Origin: Fibrobacteria bacterium
GTDB taxonomy: Bacteria > Fibrobacterota > Fibrobacteria > UBA11236
Length of the DNA stretch: 64,000 nucleotides
NCBI GenBank assembly: GCA_050486505.1
Contig: JBJHDK010000002.1
Span: 1,292-65,291 of the forward strand
Reading direction: 5' to 3'
Position numbers and translations under genes: made by a program. Each line of letters starts with the position of its first letter. The stretch's first letter is position 1. Below, piece after piece: positions 4,203-57,435 of the stretch. The notes under the pieces were generated by a model, which was not told the origin of the DNA, ran no database searches, and was given only the letters and a program-made list of their open reading frames with translations.

Positions 4203-5633
4203 CTACTGCCTCTCCCATTCCATCGTCCCGTCCGGGTTGTCTTTCAGCACGAAGCCAGCGGCGCGGAACCGGTCCCTGATCGCGTCACTGCGCGCCCAGT
4301 CCTTGTTCTTGCGGGCTTCGGCGCGCTCCGCCAGAAGCGGGACGAGTTCGGCGGGCAACTCGACCGCGTCCTCCGTTTCGGCGGGCTCCGTCAGACGAAG
4401 TCCGAGCATGGTGTCGAACAGCGCCACCAGCCCCGCACGCTCGCCCTCGAGCAAGTCGGGATCCTTCAGCATGAGGTTCATGATGCCGAGTGCCTGGGGG
4501 AAGTTCAGATCATCGCCGACCGCCTCCTCGAAACGGGCGCGCCACTCGAGTGCGCGGTCGGAGCGCACGGGGGCCGCCTTGCCGATGAACGGATCGGTAC
4601 GCTTGCGCAGGTTGCGCAGGGAATCGCGCGCGGTGTCCATGCCCTGGTAGCTGAAGTTCAGGTAATTGCGGTAGTGCGCCGTCAAGCAGAAGTAGCGGTA
4701 ATCCATGGCCGAGTAACCCTGCCTGATCAGCACATCGAGCGTGATGAACTCGCCGGAGGACTTGGACATTTTGCCCGCCCCCCCTTTGCACGTCTCGTCA
4801 GGCGCCTCGAGCAACCAGCCGCCGTGGATCCAGAAGCGCGCGAACGGCTTGCCGGTGGCGCACTCCGATTGCGCGATCTCGTTGGTGTGATGCACGCGGA
4901 TGTGGTCGGTGCCCCCGCAGTGGATGTCGATGGTCTCGCCCAGCAGCTTCATCGCCATCGCGGAGCATTCGACGTGCCATCCCGGAAACCCGCGGCCCCA
5001 CGGGGAGTCCCATTCCATCTGTCGTTGCGCGTCTTTGGGCGAAAACTTCCACAGCGCAAAGTCGGTGGGATTACGCTTCCCCTCCGCCATGGCGACGCGC
5101 GCCCCCGCCTGCATTCCCTCGAGGTCGAGCTTCGCGAAGTCGGCATAACGCGGAAACTTCGCTGTGTCGAAATACACGCCATCTTCGGGCACGACATAAG
5201 CGTAACCCTTCTCCTCGAGCTCGCGCACCAGTTCGATCTGCTCGGGAATGTGCCCCGTCGCCTTGGGCCAGGCGGTGGGCTCACGCAGGTTGAGCGCCTT
5301 CCAGTCCTTGAAGAAGGCCTGCGCATACTGTTCCGCGATGTCCCACACCGACTTGCCCTCGCGGCGGGCACCCTTCTCCATCTTGTCTTCGCCGGTGTCG
5401 GCGTCGGAGGTGAGGTGGCCAACGTCGGTGATGTTGACCACATGCTGTACGGTGTATCCGGCGTGCTCGAGGGCGCGGCGCAACAGGTCCTCGAAGACGT
5501 AGGTGCGCAGGTTGCCGATGTGGGCGAAGTGGTACACCGTCGGGCCGCAGCAGTACATCTTCACGATCCCGGGCGTGATGGGTTCGAAGGGCTGCTTGGC
5601 ACGGGCGGCGGTATTGTAAAGATGGAGCTGCAT
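4203..5633 (-). CDS. cysS: Cysteine--tRNA ligase
   Basis: HIGN and KMSKS class-I aaRS motifs; full-length CysRS. Confidence 0.95.
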   Translation of the reverse strand: MQLHLYNTAARAKQPFEPITPGIVKMYCCGPTVYHFAHIGNLRTYVFEDLLRRALEHAGYTVQHVVNITDVGHLTSDADTGEDKMEKGARREGKSVWDIAEQYAQAFFKDWKALNLREPTAWPKATGHIPEQIELVRELEEKGYAYVVPEDGVYFDTAKFPRYADFAKLDLEGMQAGARVAMAEGKRNPTDFALWKFSPKDAQRQMEWDSPWGRGFPGWHVECSAMAMKLLGETIDIHCGGTDHIRVHHTNEIAQSECATGKPFARFWIHGGWLLEAPDETCKGGAGKMSKSSGEFITLDVLIRQGYSAMDYRYFCLTAHYRNYLNFSYQGMDTARDSLRNLRKRTDPFIGKAAPVRSDRALEWRARFEEAVGDDLNFPQALGIMNLMLKDPDLLEGERAGLVALFDTMLGLRLTEPAETEDAVELPAELVPLLAERAEARKNKDWARSDAIRDRFRAAGFVLKDNPDGTMEWERQ

Positions 5634-5773: not shown

Positions 5774-7255
5774 CTACTCCTCCCCGACACCCACAACGGT
5801 GATGTACAGGATGCCGTGGCTCAACGGCAATTCCAAAAGTTCGTTGGCAAGGTCGTCGTAGTAGCCGCCGATGCCCGACGAGCCGAGATCGCGGTGCACC
5901 GCCCACAACTGGATGCGCTCGCCGATCATGCCGCAGTCCATGCAGGCGTAGCGATACCCGCGATCCCCGTACGCGTCGACCAGCGCCTCGATGTCGGCCG
6001 TGTACACGAGGGCGAAGGCGCAGTCCGAGGCGATGTCCTGGCCGAGGCTGACGGCGTGCATGTCGGCCCTGAAATCTCCCGCGCGCTTGAGGCTCCACTC
6101 CTGCGTCGCGGGATCGACGGCGTAAACGCCGGGCTCGATCCCGTCCACGGAAAAGGCGACGACGTGCAGCCCGAGAACGTCCCGGGTGAGGGTGACCTGC
6201 TCCACGCCCGCCGCCGGACGGAGCGCGAATCGCAGCATGTCCTCCGCATCGCGCAAGGAGATGGATGCGCCGGTGAAGCGCCGCGTCGAACGACGGCGAA
6301 GAATCACCGGCTGCGGGTTGAAGTCCGCCTCCCCGGGCCTGGCCTGTCGTCCGAACCTTGCCGCGTCGTCAGGCAAGGACAGTCCGCCGACCGCTGGACG
6401 CAAGGGGTCGCTCAGCGCAATGCGCTCGCAGGCGTTTTGCTGCACCTGCATGGCGTCGTCGGAGTCGGCACGGGTGATGGCCACCTCGGGGAGCGGTCCC
6501 GGAAACTGTCCCCCGCCGGGGGGAAGATGGCCTCCGGGCCCCAAAGCGATCCCCAGCAAGGGAAACTCCTCCTTGCGTCCGAGGAAAAGAAGTTCCTCGA
6601 GGCCGTCGTCCCGGAACCCGCCGAGCACGCGGGCATCGATTCCCATGGCCGCCGCGACCTCGAGCAGGTTGGCGGCGGCGTGCCCCGTGTCAAGGAGGAT
6701 GCGGCGGTAGGCACGCTCCTTGTAACGCCAGGCGCTGCGCGCGTAAACGCCCGTGAAAAGCACCATGCAGCGGGTTTTGGCGACGACGGAATGTCCCAGA
6801 AAGTGGTGCCTCAGATCGGCAAAGAAATCTCCCTGCCAAACCGGAATGAGAGCGTTGCGCAAGGAGTGGTAGTGGTAAATGCCCGCGGGGAGATCGACGA
6901 AATCGCGTACGGCGACGTAAACCTCGGTCGGGTAGAGCCCGCCTGCGGACGGGGCTGCGCGCAGGTACCAATCGTTGCCCCCGCCCGTGACGCGCGCGGT
7001 GAGTCCCAACGTCAGGTGCAGCAGGCGGACAAGCGCGGGCAGGGCCTCGTCTCCCAGCCAAGGGGCGACGGGGCCGAACGGCGCATCGACTTCCTCGAAG
7101 AGCCCCCGCAACTGCGGAACGAGGTCGACGCTGCGACCCTCGGGCGCATCCTTGAAGGGCTCGGGTTGCTCCGTCCAACGGACCGTGCCGAGGCGATCAA
7201 TGGTTTCGGGCCGGTATTTGGTGAGCTCGTGGTAGCGCGCGGTAAAACTTGGCAC
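5774..7255 (-). CDS. SagB/ThcOx-type dehydrogenase (tandem nitroreductase-fold domains)
   Basis: 493 aa; two nitroreductase-like halves; the ~500-aa SagB-type architecture; no adjacent cyclodehydratase. Confidence 0.65.
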   Translation of the reverse strand: MPSFTARYHELTKYRPETIDRLGTVRWTEQPEPFKDAPEGRSVDLVPQLRGLFEEVDAPFGPVAPWLGDEALPALVRLLHLTLGLTARVTGGGNDWYLRAAPSAGGLYPTEVYVAVRDFVDLPAGIYHYHSLRNALIPVWQGDFFADLRHHFLGHSVVAKTRCMVLFTGVYARSAWRYKERAYRRILLDTGHAAANLLEVAAAMGIDARVLGGFRDDGLEELLFLGRKEEFPLLGIALGPGGHLPPGGGQFPGPLPEVAITRADSDDAMQVQQNACERIALSDPLRPAVGGLSLPDDAARFGRQARPGEADFNPQPVILRRRSTRRFTGASISLRDAEDMLRFALRPAAGVEQVTLTRDVLGLHVVAFSVDGIEPGVYAVDPATQEWSLKRAGDFRADMHAVSLGQDIASDCAFALVYTADIEALVDAYGDRGYRYACMDCGMIGERIQLWAVHRDLGSSGIGGYYDDLANELLELPLSHGILYITVVGVGEE

Positions 7256-10668: not shown

Positions 10669-11596
10669 GCGCAAGCGGGTCGCCCCGGCGTCGCCGCAAC
10701 CCCCGGGTTATGCGTACGTCAACGGTCGCATCACGCGCGCGGACCGCGCCGCCATCTCCGTCTTCGACCGCGGCCTCGTCCTGGGCGACGGGCTCTTCGA
10801 AACACTGCGGGCGCATCACGGAGTTCCGGAGTTCCTCGACCTGCATTACCGGCGCCTCGTGAAATCAGCGCGCCGCTTGCGCATCCGCGTGCCCGTGACG
10901 GAGACGGAGCTGCGCGACATCATCGCGACGCTGTGTCGCAAAAGCCGGATGTACGACGCCGCGGTCCGCATCACCCTGACGCGCGGCCGCTATTTCGGCG
11001 GCCTCGCCATCGACCCCGAGGTTCCCCCATCGCTCATCGTCGTGGTGTTGCCGGTGCAACCGCTTCCCACCGACATCCTCGCACGCGGGGTGAAAGTGGC
11101 GGTGTCCTCGATCAACAAAACAGCCGCATCGGGCCTCGACCCGCGCATCAAGTCGATCAACTATCTGGCCAACATCTTCGCCAAGGCCGAAGGCGACCGC
11201 AAGGGGTGCTACGAGGCGATTCTGCTCGGCCCGCGCGGCGAGATCGCCGAATTGTCCACCTCAAGTTTCTTCTGCGTGCTCAAGGGCGTGGTCGTCACGC
11301 CCCCCATCGACACCGGCATCCTGCCCGGCATCACCCGCCAGGTGCTGCTGCGCGAGATGAAGCGGCACCGTATCCCCTTCCGCGAGGCGGAAGTGTTTCC
11401 CAAGGACGTGGAGAAGATGTCGGAAGCGTTCCTGTGTTCCTCGGTGCGCGGCCCGGTGCCGATCGCGCGCATCGACGGAAAGAAGGTGGGAACGGGCAAG
11501 CCGGGCTCGATTTTCGCGCGACTCAGGGATCTGTATCAGGATGCGTGCGAGAGGGAGTTGCGAGTCGCGAGTTACGAGTTACGAGTTACGAAGTAA
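10655..11596 (+). CDS. Class IV (fold-type IV) aminotransferase: aminodeoxychorismate lyase / branched-chain or D-amino-acid aminotransferase family
   Basis: Family-typical N-terminus YAYVNGRI...; length about 300 aa; the last ~13 codons (ELRVASYELRVTK) and the stop lie inside the heptamer repeat arm. Confidence 0.8.
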   Translation: MPGARRKRVAPASPQPPGYAYVNGRITRADRAAISVFDRGLVLGDGLFETLRAHHGVPEFLDLHYRRLVKSARRLRIRVPVTETELRDIIATLCRKSRMYDAAVRITLTRGRYFGGLAIDPEVPPSLIVVVLPVQPLPTDILARGVKVAVSSINKTAASGLDPRIKSINYLANIFAKAEGDRKGCYEAILLGPRGEIAELSTSSFFCVLKGVVVTPPIDTGILPGITRQVLLREMKRHRIPFREAEVFPKDVEKMSEAFLCSSVRGPVPIARIDGKKVGTGKPGSIFARLRDLYQDACERELRVASYELRVTK

Positions 11597-11770
11597 AAGG
11601 CGATGCATCGGGATCGCTTGCTCCATGCCTGAAGGCATCACGCCCTTCCTGCTCCTCTGCTTGAATGCTGCATCTTTTCGTCATTCATGAAATTCTGCAC
11701 GCCACCCACAAGATCCCTGTAGAGCGGTTTCATTCGTAACTCGTAATTCGTAACTCGTAATTCTCAACTC
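11555..11770. repeat. Heptamer-repeat inverted-repeat element, copy A: 5 GAGTYRC units (11555-11589), 146-bp unique core, 5 GTAAYTC units (11736-11770)
   Basis: Left arm GAGTTGC GAGTCGC GAGTTAC GAGTTAC GAGTTAC; right arm GTAACTC GTAATTC GTAACTC GTAATTC TCAACTC is its inverted complement; sits between convergent genes and supplies both their stops. Confidence 0.8.
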
Positions 11771-14287: not shown

Positions 14288-14398
14288 GCCGGAAAGCATG
14301 GGGAACCCTGCCGGTTCCCCCTCCGTCGGGGTTTTCTTCACGGGGAACCCCCGAATCCCCCTGAAATTCTACCTTTGCCCGCTCTTCGGGCACCAGTA

Positions 14399-14475
14399 GC
14401 TCAGCTGGATAGAGCGTCGCCCTCCGAAGGCGAAGGTCACAGGTTCGACTCCTGTCTGGTGTACCACCTCACCCA
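14399..14475 (+). tRNA. tRNA-Arg (anticodon CCG)
   Basis: Folds by hand into a cloverleaf: acceptor GCACCAG/CTGGTGT, D-arm GCTC-AGCTGGATA-GAGC, anticodon loop CTCCGAA, T-arm ACAGG-TTCGACT-CCTGT, 3' ACCA. Confidence 0.85.
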
Positions 14476-15134: not shown

Positions 15135-15434
15135 ATGAATCTGTTCGTCGGTAACCTCGCATGGGCCACGACCCAAGCGGATCTGGAAGCGGCTTTCGGC
15201 GCCTACGGTGAAGTGTCCTCTGCAAAGATCATGACGGATCGCGAAACGGGAAAGTCCCGCGGCTTCGCCTTCGTCGACATGCCCAATGACTCCGAGGCCC
15301 GCAAGGCCATCGAAGAGCTGAATGGCAAGGACCTCAAGGGTCGCGCCATCAACGTGAACGAAGCGCGTCCCCGCGAAGAGCGTCCGCGCTCCGGCGGCTT
15401 CGGCGGTGGCGACCGCGGCCCCCGTCGCTGGTAA
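15135..15434 (+). CDS. RNA-binding protein (RRM/RNP-1 domain, Gly/Arg-rich tail)
   Basis: RNP-2 LFVGNL and RNP-1 RGFAFV motifs; long AT-richer 5' leader. Confidence 0.9.
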   Translation: MNLFVGNLAWATTQADLEAAFGAYGEVSSAKIMTDRETGKSRGFAFVDMPNDSEARKAIEELNGKDLKGRAINVNEARPREERPRSGGFGGGDRGPRRW

Positions 15435-15449
15435 GCTTCGGAAGTCATC

Positions 15450-15488
15450 AAAAAAGAACCCGCCCAGAAGGGCGGGTTCTTTTTTTTG
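15450..15488 (+). terminator. Rho-independent terminator
   Basis: AAAAAAGAACCCGCCC agaa GGGCGGGTTCTTTTTTTT: GC stem plus U-tract. Confidence 0.85.
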
Positions 15489-15511
15489 TCCGTGCGCGGC
15501 GCGGAGGCGAA

Positions 15512-18719: not shown

Positions 18720-18804
18720 ATCGCCCGCCCTCGTCCCGAAGAGCAGCGCGTGAACCCGCAGGTGAGTCTTCTGGCTTGCGGCGGGAACCCCTGTTGGGGG
18801 GATC

Positions 18805-18985
18805 CGGAAGTCTTCCGCCTTCCCGCCCGGCGCCCCGTTCCCCGAAGGGGGGGGATGGCCTGGACAGTGGCTGGCGCGCGCAGTTGCGGGCGCCGGGAAA
18901 ACATCAACCGCTTACAGCGACGAGCTCGCTCCCGATTCGCACGGGATTCCTCGTTATGCCCTTCCGAACCGTTCGGAGGGCTCCC
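18805..18985 (-). ncRNA. Cobalamin (adenosylcobalamin) riboswitch
   Basis: The minus strand reads ...AGGAATCCCGTGCGAATCGGGAGC...GCTGTAAGCGG...GCAACTG...GCCACTG...GGGAAGGC. This matches E. coli btuB leader blocks (AGGGAAUCCAGUGCGAAUCUGGAGCUGAC...GCAGCGGUAAGG) plus the B12 box GCCACTG and GGGAAGGC. Sits upstream of a TonB receptor. Confidence 0.8.
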
Positions 18986-19107
18986 TGTGAGCGAATGGAA
19001 TAGTAGTCAATGCGGATAGCGGGGCGTCAAACGGGCGACCCCACGGGTCGCCCGTACATGAATCGATGCCGAAGGAATGTAGGGCCGAGCCGCTGGCTCG
19101 CCCGAAA

Positions 19108-22300: not shown

Positions 22301-22425
22301 CATCGTGCCCAAGACAAGCAAGCGCGACCTGGGTATCGTGCCCGTTCATCTCGCTGGAGGGGGCCATCCTTCTTTAGTGCGCGGACTCATCCGCGATGAT
22401 TTCGCACTTCGCGCTTCCCGCTTCT

Positions 22426-24276
22426 CTATTCGGAAAACCGCACCCGCAAAAGCCCTGCGCGCAGCTGCACGGGGATCCCGACGCGGGTTTCGCCATCCGC
22501 GCGCAGGGCGGCATGGAGGCGGCGCCCCTGAAGGTCGAAGAGCTCGACCCTGCGCATTCCCTGCGGCCACGCCAGATCGCCCCCCCGATGCACATGCAGG
22601 AAGCCCTGCACCTGGCGTTCGCGCATCTCCGTTGCGGTACGCCGCACGCTCACCGGCAGACAGCTTCCGGTATATTCGATCCGGGCGATGCGGGTGGCAT
22701 TCGAGGACTGGAAGAATCCGGCCGCGTAATGCGCCACGTACAACGCCCCATCGTGGGGGCCGACCTGGATGTCGATCATCCCGACCGCGCCCGAAGGCCT
22801 GAACGTCGCCGCAAAGCCGGGGAAATCCTCGACCGAAACGACCTCCGTCCCCGAATCATTGAGGGTGACGAGCTTGACCCAGTTCCGGGCGTTCTCGAAA
22901 ATCAACCACTTGCCGTCGAGATGAGGCGGCATCTTGACCAACGACGCAAGCGTTCCCTTGTAGCGCAGCATCGGGCCGCTGAATGCCGACGTGTTGCTGA
23001 CGGTCCCGAAACCGTAAGCGGGATTGTTCTGGCCGCTGTTCCTCGAGATCGGCAAGATGGACGGCTCCGCCGGGGTCAGGCGCGTGACGCCCGTGTTCAG
23101 GGGAGAGTTGTTGAACACGCTGTCCGGATTCTGCGGGGGAAGGCTGTAGCTCGAGCTTGCCGGGTTCCACATGGCGTAGCCACGGTTCGGCCCGACGAAA
23201 TAAGGCCAGCCGTGAAACCCCGGGCCGCGGACGACATTGAACTCATCGTTTCCGACCGGACCACGCGATGCGGTGGTGGAGACGTTGTCGGGACCGACAT
23301 CTCCGTAGAACAGCCAGCCCGTCTCCTTGTCCACGTGCAGGCTGTAGGGGTTGCGATGCCCCAGCGTGTAGATCTCGGGAAGGATCTTCGTCGTGTCTTC
23401 GCCCGCGACCCATGCCCCGCCAAGCTGCCGGTAAACGTCGCGATAATTCCCCGGAGGAATGGAGTAGCCCTTTTCGGAACCATCGGGCTTGATGCGGAAG
23501 ATCTTGCCGCGCCAGTCCATGGTGTTGGTCACCGCCGCCTGGTTGTCCTGCGTCGGGTTGTTCGAGTTCATGGGCGCGAAGTTGTCGGAGTTCTCGACGT
23601 TGTTGCCTGTGCTGAAGTACAGGTTGCCGTCGGCATCCCAGCTCATGGCGCCGCCCTGATGACAGCAAATGCCCATGCTCCACGGCATGTCGATGAGCAC
23701 CTTCTCGCTGGCCGGGTCGAAGTCTCCATTGGGTAGCACGGTGAAGCGTGAAAGGCGGTTGAGCTCGCCGAGCGCCACGCGGGGGTTGTAGATCACGTAG
23801 GCTTGGCGGTTGGTTTCGAAGTCGGGATCGAATGTGACGTAGCGAAGCCCGTACTCGCGGCTGTTGCCGGCGAGCTGCCCGGTGCCGAGCCCGGTGGACA
23901 CTTCGAGGGTCAGCACGGTGCGCGCCGTGTTGGTGGCGGGATCGAACGCCCTGATGCGCCCGGTGGTGTTGTTCGTCGAATTCGTCAAGGTCGTGCGCCG
24001 CTCGGTCCAGTACACCGTGCCGTCGGTGTGCACGTGCAGGCCCACCGGTTCGATCATGTTCGGATCGTGGACGATCGCATTCTGGTTCGCCCCGCGCGCA
24101 ACCAGCACCACCTCGCGAAAATCCGAAGGTGCAAGATCGGGGCACCCGGGCCATGTCAGGGCGCCATGCGACAGGCCGACCCCGGCCCCTGCGAACAGCA
24201 CGGCGGAAACGAGGGGATAAATGGGGGGACGGGTGGGCATGAGTGCTCCGGACGGAGGTGAATGAAGTGTTTTCAT
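22426..24276 (-). CDS. PQQ-dependent (soluble glucose/sorbosone dehydrogenase-like) beta-propeller oxidoreductase with C-terminal extension
   Basis: Signal peptide after internal Met MKTLHSPP; the GHRNP motif characteristic of the SGDH/YliI family; about 616 aa. Confidence 0.65.
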   Translation of the reverse strand: MKTLHSPPSGALMPTRPPIYPLVSAVLFAGAGVGLSHGALTWPGCPDLAPSDFREVVLVARGANQNAIVHDPNMIEPVGLHVHTDGTVYWTERRTTLTNSTNNTTGRIRAFDPATNTARTVLTLEVSTGLGTGQLAGNSREYGLRYVTFDPDFETNRQAYVIYNPRVALGELNRLSRFTVLPNGDFDPASEKVLIDMPWSMGICCHQGGAMSWDADGNLYFSTGNNVENSDNFAPMNSNNPTQDNQAAVTNTMDWRGKIFRIKPDGSEKGYSIPPGNYRDVYRQLGGAWVAGEDTTKILPEIYTLGHRNPYSLHVDKETGWLFYGDVGPDNVSTTASRGPVGNDEFNVVRGPGFHGWPYFVGPNRGYAMWNPASSSYSLPPQNPDSVFNNSPLNTGVTRLTPAEPSILPISRNSGQNNPAYGFGTVSNTSAFSGPMLRYKGTLASLVKMPPHLDGKWLIFENARNWVKLVTLNDSGTEVVSVEDFPGFAATFRPSGAVGMIDIQVGPHDGALYVAHYAAGFFQSSNATRIARIEYTGSCLPVSVRRTATEMRERQVQGFLHVHRGGDLAWPQGMRRVELFDLQGRRLHAALRADGETRVGIPVQLRAGLLRVRFSE

Positions 24277-24486
24277 TGTAACACGAAACCGCTTCGTTCG
24301 CCTTCCGTTTTCACGGAATCGGAACCCCGGGGGCAAAACTGCCGGAGATCGGGCCGAAAACCGTCCTCCCGTCCGCCTCCCTGATTGATTCTGCCCGCCG
24401 GTCTAGGTAAGTTTCCCCGACAGCAAGGGGATACGCCGGCCCGGGACTTTTCACCCCGGAGCGCCCGATCCTCCGGAGACCGCCGC

Positions 24487-28677: not shown

Positions 28678-28723
28678 ACCCGAAAACCCTGACGCTCCGA
28701 ACGCATTCCCCCACCCCCACCTC

Positions 28724-28772
28724 CCAACTCCCAACTCCCAACTCCCAACTCATAACTCGTAACTCGTAACTC
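28724..28772. repeat. Heptamer tandem repeat, half-element B: 4x CCAACTC, 1x ATAACTC, 2x GTAACTC
   Basis: Seven contiguous 7-nt units ending 3 nt before the ATG at 28776; same unit family as the inverted arms at 11555-11770 and 48691-48843; no inverted partner found nearby. Confidence 0.75.
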
Positions 28773-28775
28773 AAC

Positions 28776-47803: not shown

Positions 47804-48228
47804 AGGAAAAAAACAGAACCCGCCGCCCCTTCAGGACGACGGGTTCGTGGGGCCGGAAGCACGGGCTTCCGGCCCCGGTTCAGGCGCACTCCCAGGCCCC
47901 CGCCCGGTTGCGCGCCTCCTCTCCCCCTTCGATCCTGTCTGCAAGAAAACCGGACACCCGGGGACGGTCGGTAATTTCACGTGACGAATGTACCGTGGTG
48001 CTCCAGACGTTGCAACATCATTTTGATGGCAAGATAACAATCAACGTTCATTTTATGGCGATTATTGGATTTAAATGCAGTTATTTCTCCTTTTCATATC
48101 GTTTTGGATTCGATTATTCGATAACATTATGCGGTCGACAAGTCCTTGTGCCCGCTTTTTCTGCGGAATTGCCGGGGATGCGGAAAACGGCTAGATAGTT
48201 CGAACACCCGAAACTCAAGGAGTAACCC

Positions 48229-48696
48229 ATGGAAATGGATATCGGATTGGCCAAAAAAGACCGCCAAAAGATTGCAACGGGGCTGTCGCGCGTTCTGGCG
48301 GACAGCTATACCCTCTATCTCAAAACGCACAATTTCCATTGGAATGTGACCGGGCCGATGTTCCAGACTCTCCATCTGATGTTCGAGACGCATTATACCG
48401 AACTTGCCGTGGCGGTGGACGACATCGCGGAGCGCATTCGCGCCTTGGGGCACCCCGCACCCGGAACCTACAAGGCGTTCGAAAAACTCTCTTCGATTCC
48501 GATGGAGGACGGCGTACCGAAGGCGACTGACATGATCCGCTCGCTGGTCAAGGGCCACGAGGCTGTGGCAAAAACCGCCCGCACCGCCTTCGTTGACGCG
48601 GATGCCGCTGGCGACGAGCCCACGGCCGACCTCCTGACCCAACGCATGCAGGTGCATGAGAAGACCGCGTGGATGCTCCGCAGCCTGCTGGAATAA
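48229..48696 (+). CDS. dps: DNA starvation/stationary phase protection protein Dps
   Basis: Ferritin-like ferroxidase residues (HWNVTG...HLMFE); the stop TAA lies inside the first repeat unit. Confidence 0.95.
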   Translation: MEMDIGLAKKDRQKIATGLSRVLADSYTLYLKTHNFHWNVTGPMFQTLHLMFETHYTELAVAVDDIAERIRALGHPAPGTYKAFEKLSSIPMEDGVPKATDMIRSLVKGHEAVAKTARTAFVDADAAGDEPTADLLTQRMQVHEKTAWMLRSLLE

Positions 48697-48843
48697 TTAC
48701 GAATTAAGAATTACGAATTTAACGCAGATGTCGCTGCCGCATGAAGAGTCCGTGCGCCATGCAAACGTGAATCGCCGAAGTCCGAGTTCAAGACGCCGCC
48801 CTTCATTCGTAATTCGTAATTCGTAATTCTTAATTCTTATCGC
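48691..48843. repeat. Heptamer-repeat inverted-repeat element, copy C: arms TAATTAC GAATTAA GAATTAC GAATTTA (48694-48721) and GTAATTC x3 TTAATTC TTATCGC (48809-48843), 87-bp core
   Basis: Arms are inverted complements; the dps stop (48694-96) and the hldE stop (48837-39) each fall inside an arm. Confidence 0.8.
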
Positions 48844-50288
48844 CTGCGAATCTTCTCAATGATCCCGGTGGTCGAAAGCCCCGGGATTTTTTCGACCACG
48901 TGAATGCGGCCGCCATGGCTGCGCACGAGCGGCGCCTCGATGCAGTCGGTACCGTACTCGGAGCCGTTCACGTGCACGTCGGGCCTGACTTCGTCGAGAA
49001 ACGGCATCGGCTCCTCCTCGTCGAAGACATGCACATAGTCCACGCAGCGCAAGGCGAGCAGCATGCGCGCCCGTTCCGCCTCGGGCACAAGCGGGCGATC
49101 CGCCGACTTGTAGCGCTTCACTGAGGCGTCGCTGTTGAGACCGACGATCAGCACGTCACCCTGACGCTTCGCTTCTTCAAGGATGTGAAGGTGTCCCGCG
49201 TGCAGCAGGTCGAAGGATCCGTTCACGGTCACGATGCGCTTCGCCTGCTTGCGCAGCAGCATCGCAAGCGCAGCCAGGCCCGCACGCTCGACCAGCCGGG
49301 TTCCGTTCAATGAATCCTGCAGCAACTCCTCGCGGGTGACGGTCGCGGTTCCCAGTTTTCCGACCACGATCCCTGCTGCGCGGTTCGCAAATTCTGCGGC
49401 GTCGCGGATCGATAACTTCGCGGAAATTCCGAGGACGAACGCCGCAGCGACCGTGTCCCCGGCCCCCGAGACATCGAAGATCTCCCGCGCCGATGTCGGC
49501 AGGCGAAAGCTTTCGCCGGAATCCCGGTCGAAGAATGCAAGGCCTTCGGGCCCCAAGGTCAATAACACGTGCGACGCGAACCGCTTTCGGAGGGCATCCC
49601 CTGCCGCCGACACCTTTTCGGGGGATGCTTCGCAGGCATCCCACCCCAGAAGCCCGAGCGACTCCTTCCAGTTGGGCGTCACGTAGTCGACTCCCCGATA
49701 GCGCGAACCATGCTGCGGACGCGGATCGACCAGCACCGGAATGCCGGCGCCCCGCGCGACCTCGAGGATTGCACGCGCGAGTTCTTCCGTGAAGACCCCC
49801 TTGGCATAGTCGGAGACCACGATCGCGCGCGCATCCGACAGGTGGCGGCGCGCGGACGCCAGGATCGCACCTGCCAGTTCCGATGAAATTTCCGTCGTGT
49901 CCTCGCGGTCGAGGCGAAGCAATTGCTGTCGCTGCCCGACCAGCCGTGTTTTGGTCAACGTCGGCCGGCCATCATCGAAGGCCTCCAGCCCGATGTTCGA
50001 GGCCGCGCACAACGCATCGAAAGTGATCCCGGCAACGTCACGTGCATTTCGCAGGGTGAAAAGCACTGGTTCCCCGCCCAAGGACGCGATGTTCGCGGCC
50101 GTGTTCGCGGCACCCCCCAGTACCTGCCGGGTCTTCCCGGGGTCAACCCGCAAGATGGGAACAGGGGCCTCCGGAGAAAGACGCGAGCAGTCGCCGGTGA
50201 GATATTCATCCACCATGCTGTCGCCCAGCACAAGAATTTTCGCTCCCCTGATGCGGGTCAGCGCGTCGCGCATGTCCATGGGGGTCAA
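48837..50288 (-). CDS. hldE: Bifunctional D-glycero-beta-D-manno-heptose-7-phosphate kinase / heptose-1-phosphate adenylyltransferase
   Basis: N-terminal ribokinase-like domain plus C-terminal cytidylyltransferase-like domain (GSFDLLHAGH). Confidence 0.9.
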   Translation of the reverse strand: MTPMDMRDALTRIRGAKILVLGDSMVDEYLTGDCSRLSPEAPVPILRVDPGKTRQVLGGAANTAANIASLGGEPVLFTLRNARDVAGITFDALCAASNIGLEAFDDGRPTLTKTRLVGQRQQLLRLDREDTTEISSELAGAILASARRHLSDARAIVVSDYAKGVFTEELARAILEVARGAGIPVLVDPRPQHGSRYRGVDYVTPNWKESLGLLGWDACEASPEKVSAAGDALRKRFASHVLLTLGPEGLAFFDRDSGESFRLPTSAREIFDVSGAGDTVAAAFVLGISAKLSIRDAAEFANRAAGIVVGKLGTATVTREELLQDSLNGTRLVERAGLAALAMLLRKQAKRIVTVNGSFDLLHAGHLHILEEAKRQGDVLIVGLNSDASVKRYKSADRPLVPEAERARMLLALRCVDYVHVFDEEEPMPFLDEVRPDVHVNGSEYGTDCIEAPLVRSHGGRIHVVEKIPGLSTTGIIEKIRRR

Positions 50289-56492: not shown

Positions 56493-56909
56493 ATGGGCAT
56501 GGCACCGCTTCTCACCAAGCACCGCGAGACGATCCTCACCGTGGTTCAGTCCAGCAAGGACCACCCCACGGCGCGGCAGGTTTTCGAGCGTTCCCTGAAA
56601 AAGGATCCGCGCTTGAGCATGGCGACGGTGTACAACTCCCTGAACTTCCTGACGAGCGGGGGCTACATCCGCCGCATGGAAGCGGGCGAGGAAGGAACGC
56701 GCTACGACGGAATCCTCGCACGGCATGACCACCTGATCTGCCGCCAGTGCGGCCACATCGAAGACGTGGACGTTCTTCCCTCGGACAAGGCGCGCGTCGC
56801 GTCCTTCCCGCATTTCCAGGTCGAAGAGGTCACGCTACGTGTGACGGGACTGTGCGCCTCTTGCCGCAAGCAGTCCCGTCAAGGCAATGGAACCGCAATC
56901 ACGCCCTGA
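56493..56909 (+). CDS. Fur family transcriptional regulator (PerR-like)
   Basis: Winged-helix N-domain plus CRQCGH....C.SC metal-site motifs; sits next to dps and ahpC. Confidence 0.85.
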
Positions 56910-56926
56910 GTTTTTTTGGAATCACG

Positions 56927-56941
56927 TTAGAATTAGTCTAA
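56927..56941 (+). promoter_or_regulatory. Second Per-box-like 7-1-7 repeat TTAGAATtAGTCTAA upstream of dps paralog
   Basis: One mismatch from a perfect inverted repeat; 18 nt upstream of the dps2 start. Confidence 0.5.
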
Positions 56942-56958
56942 ATCAATTGGAGGTCCCC

Positions 56959-57435
56959 ATGAAAGCACCCACCATCCAGATCGGCATCAAGGAGGCGGAC
57001 CGCAAGAAGGTCGCCGAAGGGCTTTCCCGCGTGCTGGCCGACAGCTACACGCTTTACCTGAAAACGCACAACTTCCACTGGAACGTGACCGGTCCAATGT
57101 TCCAGACCTTGCACCTCATGTTCGAGGAGCAATACACGGAACTCGCCACGGCCGTGGACACCATCGCGGAGCGCATCCGCGCCCTCGGCTTCCCGGCCCC
57201 GGGAACCTACTCGGCATACGCGAAACTCTCCTCGATCTCAGAGGAAGAGGGCGTGCCCGAGGCGAAGGAAATGATCCGCTTGCTCGTGCAGGGAAACGAG
57301 GCCGTCGCCCGTACGGCGCGCGAAACCTTCCCCGCCGCGGAGAAGGCCGGAGACGAACCCACCGCCGACCTGCTGACCCAGCGCATGCAGGTCCACGAGA
57401 AAACCGCGTGGATGCTGCGGTCGCTGCTGGAATAG
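56959..57435 (+). CDS. dps: Dps paralog (about 75% aa identity to the copy at 48229)
   Basis: Nearly identical core and C-terminus to the first Dps; RBS GGAGG upstream. Confidence 0.95.

Follow-up and report, generated by a model that had tools for sequence, protein, structure and literature searches.

What kind of element can close two genes at once? In the window, i.e. the whole stretch of 64,000 nucleotides analysed here, the convergent genes dps and hldE run into facing arrays of seven-nucleotide units, which form the arms of an inverted repeat around a unique core. The preliminary description had taken this structure, here called copy B, for the second copy of a non-autonomous mobile element that is defined by its terminal heptamer arrays and inserts preferentially between convergent genes. 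That the element exists was confirmed by reading of the sequence, inverted-repeat search, tandem-repeat analysis (TRF) and folding, and it is indeed the second copy of a recurrent architecture, in which inverted heptamer arrays enclose unrelated cores. For its mobile nature, little support was obtained.

In copy B, which spans positions 48692-48839, four GAATTAC-type units lie opposite five or six GTAATTC-type units, separated by the core of 80-87 nt (Table 1). In agreement with the preliminary description, the element caps both stop codons, that of dps lying within the first left-arm unit and that of hldE directly following the last full right-arm unit; arms and core together occupy the entire spacer between the two codons. 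The previously given core length of 87 bp is correct if TTCATTC is not taken as a unit; counting TTCATTC as a degenerate inner unit shortens the core to 80 nt. The inverted-repeat search returned arms of 22-28 nt, 89-95% complementary depending on the register and 86-98 nt apart, and TRF detected period-7 arrays of 3.6 and 4.6 copies with 88-96% match, i.e. tandem heptamers of three or more units on both sides. The two arrays are convergent, close to each other, located on opposite strands and able to pair, and thus constitute an inverted heptamer pair. None of the units contains a G run, so that a G-tract capable of G-quadruplex formation, as in the Xanthomonas type, is lacking. The core matched nothing in Rfam, in the window or in the loci of relatives. 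No Rfam family exceeded the threshold at copy A or copy B, and at E-values up to 10 a single chance match of 11 bits was obtained, outside the element. Short reading frames in the cores (ATG to TAA, 29 codons on the minus strand of core B and 31 codons in core A) were rejected as small proteins; they are regarded as an artefact, since the ATG stems from the common GAATG junction of arm and core, and in other elements the ATG at this junction is directly followed by stop codons.

Table 1. Positions of the heptamer-array loci and of the genes adjoining copy B in the window.
Feature	Position	Strand	Description
Copy A left arm	11555-11596		GAGTTGC GAGTCGC GAGTTAC x3 GAAGTAA; aminotransferase stop codon 11594-96
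Copy A core	11597-11728		132 nt; unrelated to core B
Copy A right arm	11729-11770		TTCATTC GTAACTC GTAATTC GTAACTC GTAATTC TCAACTC; methyltransferase stop codon (minus strand) 11764-66
One-sided heptamer array	28709-28773	+	CCCAACT x4, CATAACT, CGTAACT x2; related to copies A and B
dps	48229-48696	+	Ferritin-like (Pfam), 155 aa; TAA stop codon 48694-96 within first left-arm unit
Copy B left arm	48692-48721		(AA)TAATTAC 48694-48700, GAATTAA 48701-07, GAATTAC 48708-14, GAATTTA 48715-21
Copy B core	48722-48801		80 nt, ~60% G+C
Copy B right arm	48802-48839		TTCATTC 48802-08, GTAATTC x3 48809-29, TTAATTC 48830-36, TTA 48837-39
hldE	48837-50288	-	PfkB + CTP_transf_like; 483 aa as listed ORF, database copy 480 aa; convergent with dps

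Three heptamer-array loci are present in the 64 kb, each located between ORFs or overlapping their last codons. A two-unit motif with up to 3 mismatches matched 18 times in the window, where 1.63 matches were expected, and 18 was reached in 0 of 100 shuffles; all matches but one fall within these three loci, and single GTAAYTC or GARTTAC units are found almost exclusively inside the arrays. Copy A (11555-11770) has the same layout as copy B, with GAGTTAC-type units, of which the units of copy B are an A/T-shifted variant, as noted before. Its stem comprises 46 positions and its arrays 5.3 and 3.9 period-7 copies (TRF). The similar starts and ends that the preliminary description had seen in cores A and B turned out to be merely degenerate innermost heptamer units (GAATTTA/GAAGTAA and TTCATTC) and do not represent a conserved core terminus. 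When translated, the left arm of copy A provides the last 14 codons of a class-IV aminotransferase. Homologues of this enzyme end in ACERE-x-x(-x)*, while the window protein adds about 10 residues, VASYELRVTK, from the heptamer arm; here, the repeat has become part of the coding sequence. The third locus is a one-sided array, which drifts from CCCAACT to CGTAACT and stops 3 nt ahead of the ATG of a Na/Pi cotransporter gene. A further period-7 stretch (TTCGCAC TTCGCGC TTCCCGC, 22401-22424) adjoins a glucose/sorbosone dehydrogenase-like gene (22426-24336, minus strand) at its stop codon. Apart from heptamers, the window contains a cobalamin riboswitch (18744-19003, minus strand) ahead of a TonB-dependent receptor gene, one tRNA gene (14390-14463) and, at 56493-57435, a second Fur and ferritin pair.

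The arms form the stem in the predicted folds of copy B, with energies of -45.2 kcal/mol (z -3.2) for the plus strand and -51.4 kcal/mol (z -4.3) for the minus strand relative to shuffled sequences; for copy A, -97.7 kcal/mol (z -8.3) was obtained. The heptamer stems consist of 71-86% A+T, and the window has a G+C content of ~63%; its homologues carry names that suggest Fibrobacterota. Both copies sit at the 3' ends of convergent genes, the position expected of a bidirectional terminator. The terminator scan found no G+C-rich stem with U-tract within copy B and only a weak 5-bp candidate in core A. At other convergent pairs the window genome has classical bidirectional terminators, e.g. after position 15434, where the gene for a 99-aa RRM-type RNA-binding protein (15135-15434) is followed by a textbook example with A-tract, GC hairpin and T-tract (~15455-15495). 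A further strong hairpin with a T-run, similar to a terminator, is located immediately upstream of the DUF4423 gene (47816-47846, minus strand), where no gene to be terminated is obvious; in relative L121 a GC-rich hairpin-like stretch (~5895-5935) is likewise found just upstream of the DUF4423 gene. A wobble signature of the RNA level was sought in the arms of 24 elements of this design and proved uninformative: 16 mismatches are of the transition type and 15 are others. As G-U-compatible changes are not in clear excess, the mismatches do not demonstrate selection on the RNA.

Orthologous gene junctions were used to follow the history of the spacers. The databases contain no close strain of the source genome, the best HldE relative being 73% identical, and the order DUF4423-dps-hldE is kept in relatives with 70-73% identical HldE. 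In L125 the two genes are separated by 43 nt with a GC hairpin extending over the stop codon (-21.1 kcal/mol, z -6.4), in L310 by 66 nt with a 12-bp GC hairpin (-39.2 kcal/mol, z -4.2), and in L309 (positions 4444-4550; 73% identical HldE) by 107 nt with a long hairpin, the arms of which are inverted short repeats of the CAACA type (-43.6 kcal/mol, z -4.3). Heptamers of the GAATTAC type are absent from all three spacers. In the orthologues, the coding ends of dps and hldE are preserved and carry no repeats; the finding that the preliminary description had named as its refutation, the same sequence as ordinary conserved coding ends free of repeat structure, was not obtained. Dps ends in ...LLE* both in the window and in L125; hence, the left arm begins exactly at the stop codon. 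In L121 a truncated dps remnant is located downstream of hldE (5447-5530), with an intact Fur-ferritin-AhpC cluster elsewhere on the contig. In view of the spacers of L125, L310 and L309, a hairpin is the conserved feature of the dps/hldE junction, and the heptamer arms are the version of this lineage.

The copy A site is informative in a different way. In L304, which encodes a 79% identical aminotransferase and the same convergent methyltransferase, the spacer consists of 49 nt, TAG GAATTGC GAATTG GGGGCGGGCTCGCCCC CATTCGC GATTCGC, i.e. of two heptamer-like units per side of a different, 18-nt GC hairpin core. The unit number at this site is thus 6 in the window and 2 in L304, and the core can be exchanged with the arms retained. 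In L303 (82%) an OsmC gene lies between aminotransferase and methyltransferase, with no heptamers there, while on the same contig a GTAATTC-type array adjoins the stop codon of MarC; the corresponding spacer in the window measures only 18 nt. Core A was considered as a remnant of such an OsmC gene and shows no similarity to it. In more distant relatives no arrays were found at the copy A site. The comparisons with L304 and L303 indicate that, within one clade, arrays have appeared, disappeared and changed in size at different spacers. A change in unit number was also observed between L135 and L170, which are 87% identical and have 3 and 4 units, respectively. The window spacers are 90-120 nt longer than those of the nearest orthologues. 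Since the orthologous spacers are much shorter, extra DNA must have entered or grown at copies A and B.

Arrays of this type are by no means restricted to the window genome. A scan for (GTAAYTC)3 in one genome per species returned at least 120 loci spread over many phyla, with Nostocales, Bacteroidota, Chloroflexota, Acidobacteriota, Verrucomicrobiota, Planctomycetota, Ignavibacteriota, Gemmatimonadota and others among the matches listed. The complete (GAATTAC)n-core-(GTAATTC)n architecture recurs in Acidobacteriota, Chloroflexota, Bacteroidota, Verrucomicrobiota, Planctomycetota, Gemmatimonadota and phage contigs. The cores of these elements measure 6-207 nt, are mutually unrelated and often are hairpins themselves. 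The arms mostly lie within a few bases of the stop or start codon of a neighbouring ORF, and the outermost unit is often TAATTAC, which provides the TAA. Among the matches listed for other genomes, only 8 of 152 arrays are located inside ORFs. Arm lengths are often unequal, e.g. 63 and 14 nt, which leaves a symmetric growth of both arms unsupported; single arrays are common, and some spacers consist wholly of several different heptamer arrays. Two further arrangements were observed. In one locus (L033, 40-500) a ~115-nt tandem repeat, each unit of which opens with (GAATTAC)3-4, is closed by an oppositely oriented GTCATTC-type array. In phage sequences (L154, 950-1060; L162, 1367-1477) the spacer is made of three abutting heptamer arrays, ACCCAGA, GAATTAC and GAACACG/AAACACG, extending as far as the start codon. 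An acidobacterial MAG (L010) has three GAATTAC-type hairpins in its S10/spc ribosomal-protein cluster, between L29 and S17 (2382-2439), S17 and L14 (3977-4037), and S14 and S8 (4324-4400).

The order of the two arms is strongly biased. A lenient detector found, among the matches listed, 28 pairs of the order GARTTAC...GTAAYTC and 13 of the opposite order; for non-cyanobacterial loci with a gap of at most 120 nt, 24 convergent pairs were counted among the matches listed versus 2 divergent ones. On viral contigs, GAATTACx2-N5-35-GTAATTCx2 occurs at 7 sites and the reverse order at 0. Across 24 such elements, 605 of 636 arm positions (95%) are Watson-Crick paired. The preference for GAATTAC as 5' arm and GTAATTC as 3' arm shows a directional constraint beyond base pairing. 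An alternative, in which each arm is an independent 3' array oriented by its own gene, was discarded, as the orientations relative to adjacent stop codons (38 versus 32) follow no clear rule.

In viral contigs (GTAATTC)3 was found in 47 stretches, compared with 4 and 3 for two permutations of the same composition; pure GTAACTC gave 5 stretches and a permutation of it, used as control, 7, and TAACTGA was found in 107. Portal, terminase and capsid genes identify the array-bearing contigs as real phages. Some of them have a hairpin every 1-2 kb, with loops of 13-14 nt. A common unusual protein was searched for in array-rich phage contigs and not found; the portal, terminase and capsid families are the only ones that recur. 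In phage L153 (1487-1600 and 2999-3110) one of the two hairpins directly follows a putative major capsid gene.

Based on these observations, we interpret copy B as two heptanucleotide simple-sequence-repeat arrays, built of GAATTAC and one-base variants thereof and facing each other in mirror orientation, and not as a transposed unit; for this explanation as a whole we estimate a probability of roughly 50%. The part that concerns the origin of the heptamer arrays in place is considered likely. The arrays would arise and change their length by replication slippage, and they would expand until a coding constraint is met, which would explain the position of the stop codons in the outermost units; in the case of copy A, the array would have extended into the gene and added about 10 codons. 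The two-unit version with a different core in L304 lets copy A look like the product of evolution in place, and the same is suggested by the L303 array at another junction, the 3 and 4 units in L135 and L170, and the occurrence of unequal and single arrays. Since the arrays are inverted, both convergent transcripts and the single-stranded DNA can fold a 24-46 bp A/U-rich stem around the core. This stem occupies the slot that in the relatives is filled by ordinary GC-rich hairpins. A selected role of the hairpin at the RNA level is proposed more tentatively and has somewhat less than an even chance in our judgement. The stem would then most likely be a transcript-end structure, acting as a barrier to 3' exonucleases or as a substrate of RNase III, while any termination would be weak at most. 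The missing U-tract and the tolerance of such hairpins within a ribosomal-protein operon make efficient termination unlikely. The three hairpins in the S10/spc cluster of L010 argue against efficient termination, and they are compatible with no function at all. Slippage alone leaves both the recurrence of one heptamer in distant phyla and phages and the near-constant arm order unaccounted for, and the interpretation does not cover the 80- and 132-nt cores.

The hairpin may indeed be a neutral by-product: slippage-prone repeats would accumulate in spacers, the hairpin would be unselected, and the inverted layout would be incidental or reflect a mutational bias. The arrays occur in all kinds of spacers, adjoining stop as well as start codons and lying within a ribosomal-protein operon, and they largely spare ORFs among the matches listed; this speaks for a by-product, as do the drift of the unit sequence along the arrays, their coming and going between relatives and the frequently unequal arms. 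However, both arm orders would pair equally well, and yet one of them prevails among the non-cyanobacterial matches listed as well as in the viral contigs. The high Watson-Crick complementarity of the arms, the presence of a hairpin in the same slot in every orthologue examined, and a frequency of the heptamer in viral contigs that is ~7-15 times that of control heptamers also speak against a mere by-product. We regard this explanation as unlikely.

The biased arm order and the recurrence across phyla and phages leave room for a model based on protein recognition or on a dedicated mechanism. The arrays could be binding sites of a sequence-specific protein, with the hairpin being secondary; such a protein could be a binder of single-stranded RNA (RRM, cold-shock or S1, with ~7 nt per domain) or a DNA binder that coats the heptads. 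This would fit the conservation of the same heptamer across phyla and phages, its enrichment over control heptamers, the biased arm order, and the co-orientation of phage arrays with their genes. Some arrays moreover immediately precede start codons, in the manner described for TAACTGA arrays (PMC4679880), and an RRM-type protein is encoded in the window itself. Against it, no candidate protein is tied to the arrays by neighbourhood, as the viral loci share only structural phage genes; the units drift freely (GAGTTAC, GAATTAA, CCCAACT), and in paired elements the sites would be sequestered in the duplex. Protein binding as the primary role is considered improbable.

A similarly low probability, slightly below that of protein binding, is assigned to the mobile element of the preliminary description, i.e. 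a MITE- or foldback-like unit that is recognised via its terminal heptamer arrays and inserts between genes. It would account for the terminal inverted arms around a variable middle, for two full copies within 64 kb, for the absence of the repeat from the relatives' hldE/dps spacer and for the additional length of the window spacers. Some phage contigs carry many copies, and in phage L153 both hairpins are followed by the same ~25-nt segment with a ribosome-binding site. Several observations speak against it, however. The flanks of copy B (...CTGGAA|TAATTAC and TTAATTC|TTATCGCC) and of copy A (GAGAGG|GAGTTGC and TCAACTC|CTTTTC) contain no adjacent direct repeat that would represent a target-site duplication; GCCTGC occurs on both sides of copy B, 3-4 nt off and within conserved coding sequence. 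The arms start exactly at conserved stop codons, with no leftover spacer outside. Cores A and B match only themselves among the retrieved sequences, and different cores within one genome are seen in the window (A and B), L083 (a and b), L010 (a, b and c) and L042. One-sided arrays, unequal arms and the two-unit version with another core at the orthologous copy A site are likewise difficult to reconcile with transposition. When the 50 window ORFs were scored against Pfam, no transposase, recombinase, integrase or reverse transcriptase was detected; ~15 of them had no match of any kind. The supposed preference for convergent gene pairs is not upheld either, as elements also adjoin start codons and sit inside a ribosomal-protein operon. 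At their ends, integron attC sites have an inverse core RYYYAAC and a core GTTRRRY, and an integrase is encoded in the vicinity. Neither GAGTTAC/GTAACTC nor GAATTAC/GTAATTC agrees with this consensus, and no integrase scored among the 50 window ORFs, by which an attC site was rejected. The same applies to attC-like gene cassettes bounded by hairpins: the genes with such hairpins on both sides are the housekeeping genes miaA and rpsQ, which encodes ribosomal protein S17. Equally remote is the idea that GAATTAC-type hairpins are more than products of slippage and represent a modular RNA or DNA signal that is shared horizontally, with phages as carriers of many copies, written or maintained by a dedicated sequence-specific factor and read with fixed polarity. 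Such a signal would be, for instance, a universal RNase III/processing cassette or an insulator coated by protein, and its users would range from Acidobacteriota to Bacteroidota and include their phages.

To our knowledge, heptamer repeats in bacteria have been noticed since 1990 and have no accepted function. The present case adds that hairpins sharing one design and one arm order are built from a single A/T-rich unit, GAATTAC, across many phyla and phage genomes, that these hairpins replace ordinary GC hairpins at orthologous gene junctions, and that they can rewrite gene ends by supplying stop codons or by adding a tail of 10 residues. If the hairpins act on transcripts, they offer a simple and evolvable route to transcript-end structures. 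Otherwise, they illustrate clearly how repeat expansion shapes spacers and C-termini, and both annotation and MITE-finding programs can be misled by them.

Compared with known systems, the elements resemble bidirectional intrinsic terminators in their position, in the symmetric hairpin on both strands and in having an A-richer 5' and a U-richer 3' side; they differ from them by the A/U-rich stem of 24-46 bp, the loop of 80-132 nt, the missing U-tract and the occurrence of elements of the same kind inside an operon. With MITEs and REPINs they share short intergenic multi-copy units, inverted ends and hairpin potential. In MITEs and REPINs the internal sequence is conserved and the ends are defined, and as a rule there are target-site duplications or a cognate transposase, which for REPINs is RAYT; no such feature was found for the heptamer elements within the scope of the window.

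A closer relationship is seen with other bacterial heptamers, which are over-represented and have been attributed to slippage (Mrazek 2007, as cited in PMC4679880). Our literature search returned no searchable paper that prints the GAATTAC array sequence. TAACTGA arrays have been described in Beggiatoaceae, Cyanobacteria and Bacteroidetes, and binding of S1, Csp or CsrA was proposed (MacGregor 2015, PMC4679880). These and the cyanobacterial heptamers (PMC4679880) agree with the GAATTAC arrays in having 2-6 or more units, in being almost all intergenic and patchy across phyla, in adjoining start or stop codons and occurring in ribosomal-protein operons, and in having stop codons in all three frames of one reading direction. 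The one-sided window array, with TAACTCG units just before an ATG, closely matches the TAACTGA pattern upstream of start codons. TAACTGA arrays are, however, nearly all single and direct, with one inverted case among 170 (PMC4679880), whereas the GAATTAC form is paired and hairpin-forming with a unique core.

The best counterpart of the paired form is GGGAATC of Xanthomonas (Rehm et al. 2015, PMC4692102), where tandem 7-nt units, usually ~4 per array, are ~90% intergenic and located near the 3' end of the upstream ORF. Convergent opposite-strand pairs able to make stem-loops account for about 70 of the 186 arrays, and array length varies between related species while the single or paired type is usually kept (PMC4692102). 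Like these pairs, copy B consists of convergent inverted heptamer arrays that are intergenic and capable of forming a stem-loop. The Xanthomonas unit is G-rich and was studied for G-quadruplex formation (PMC4692102), while the GAATTAC unit is A/T-rich without G-tract; in addition, the latter is common to many phyla and phages, its arms overlap stop codons and its arm order is strongly biased. Copy B is an ordinary instance of the known heptanucleotide arrays in their paired hairpin form, and the polarity rule that holds across phyla is a small puzzle of its own.
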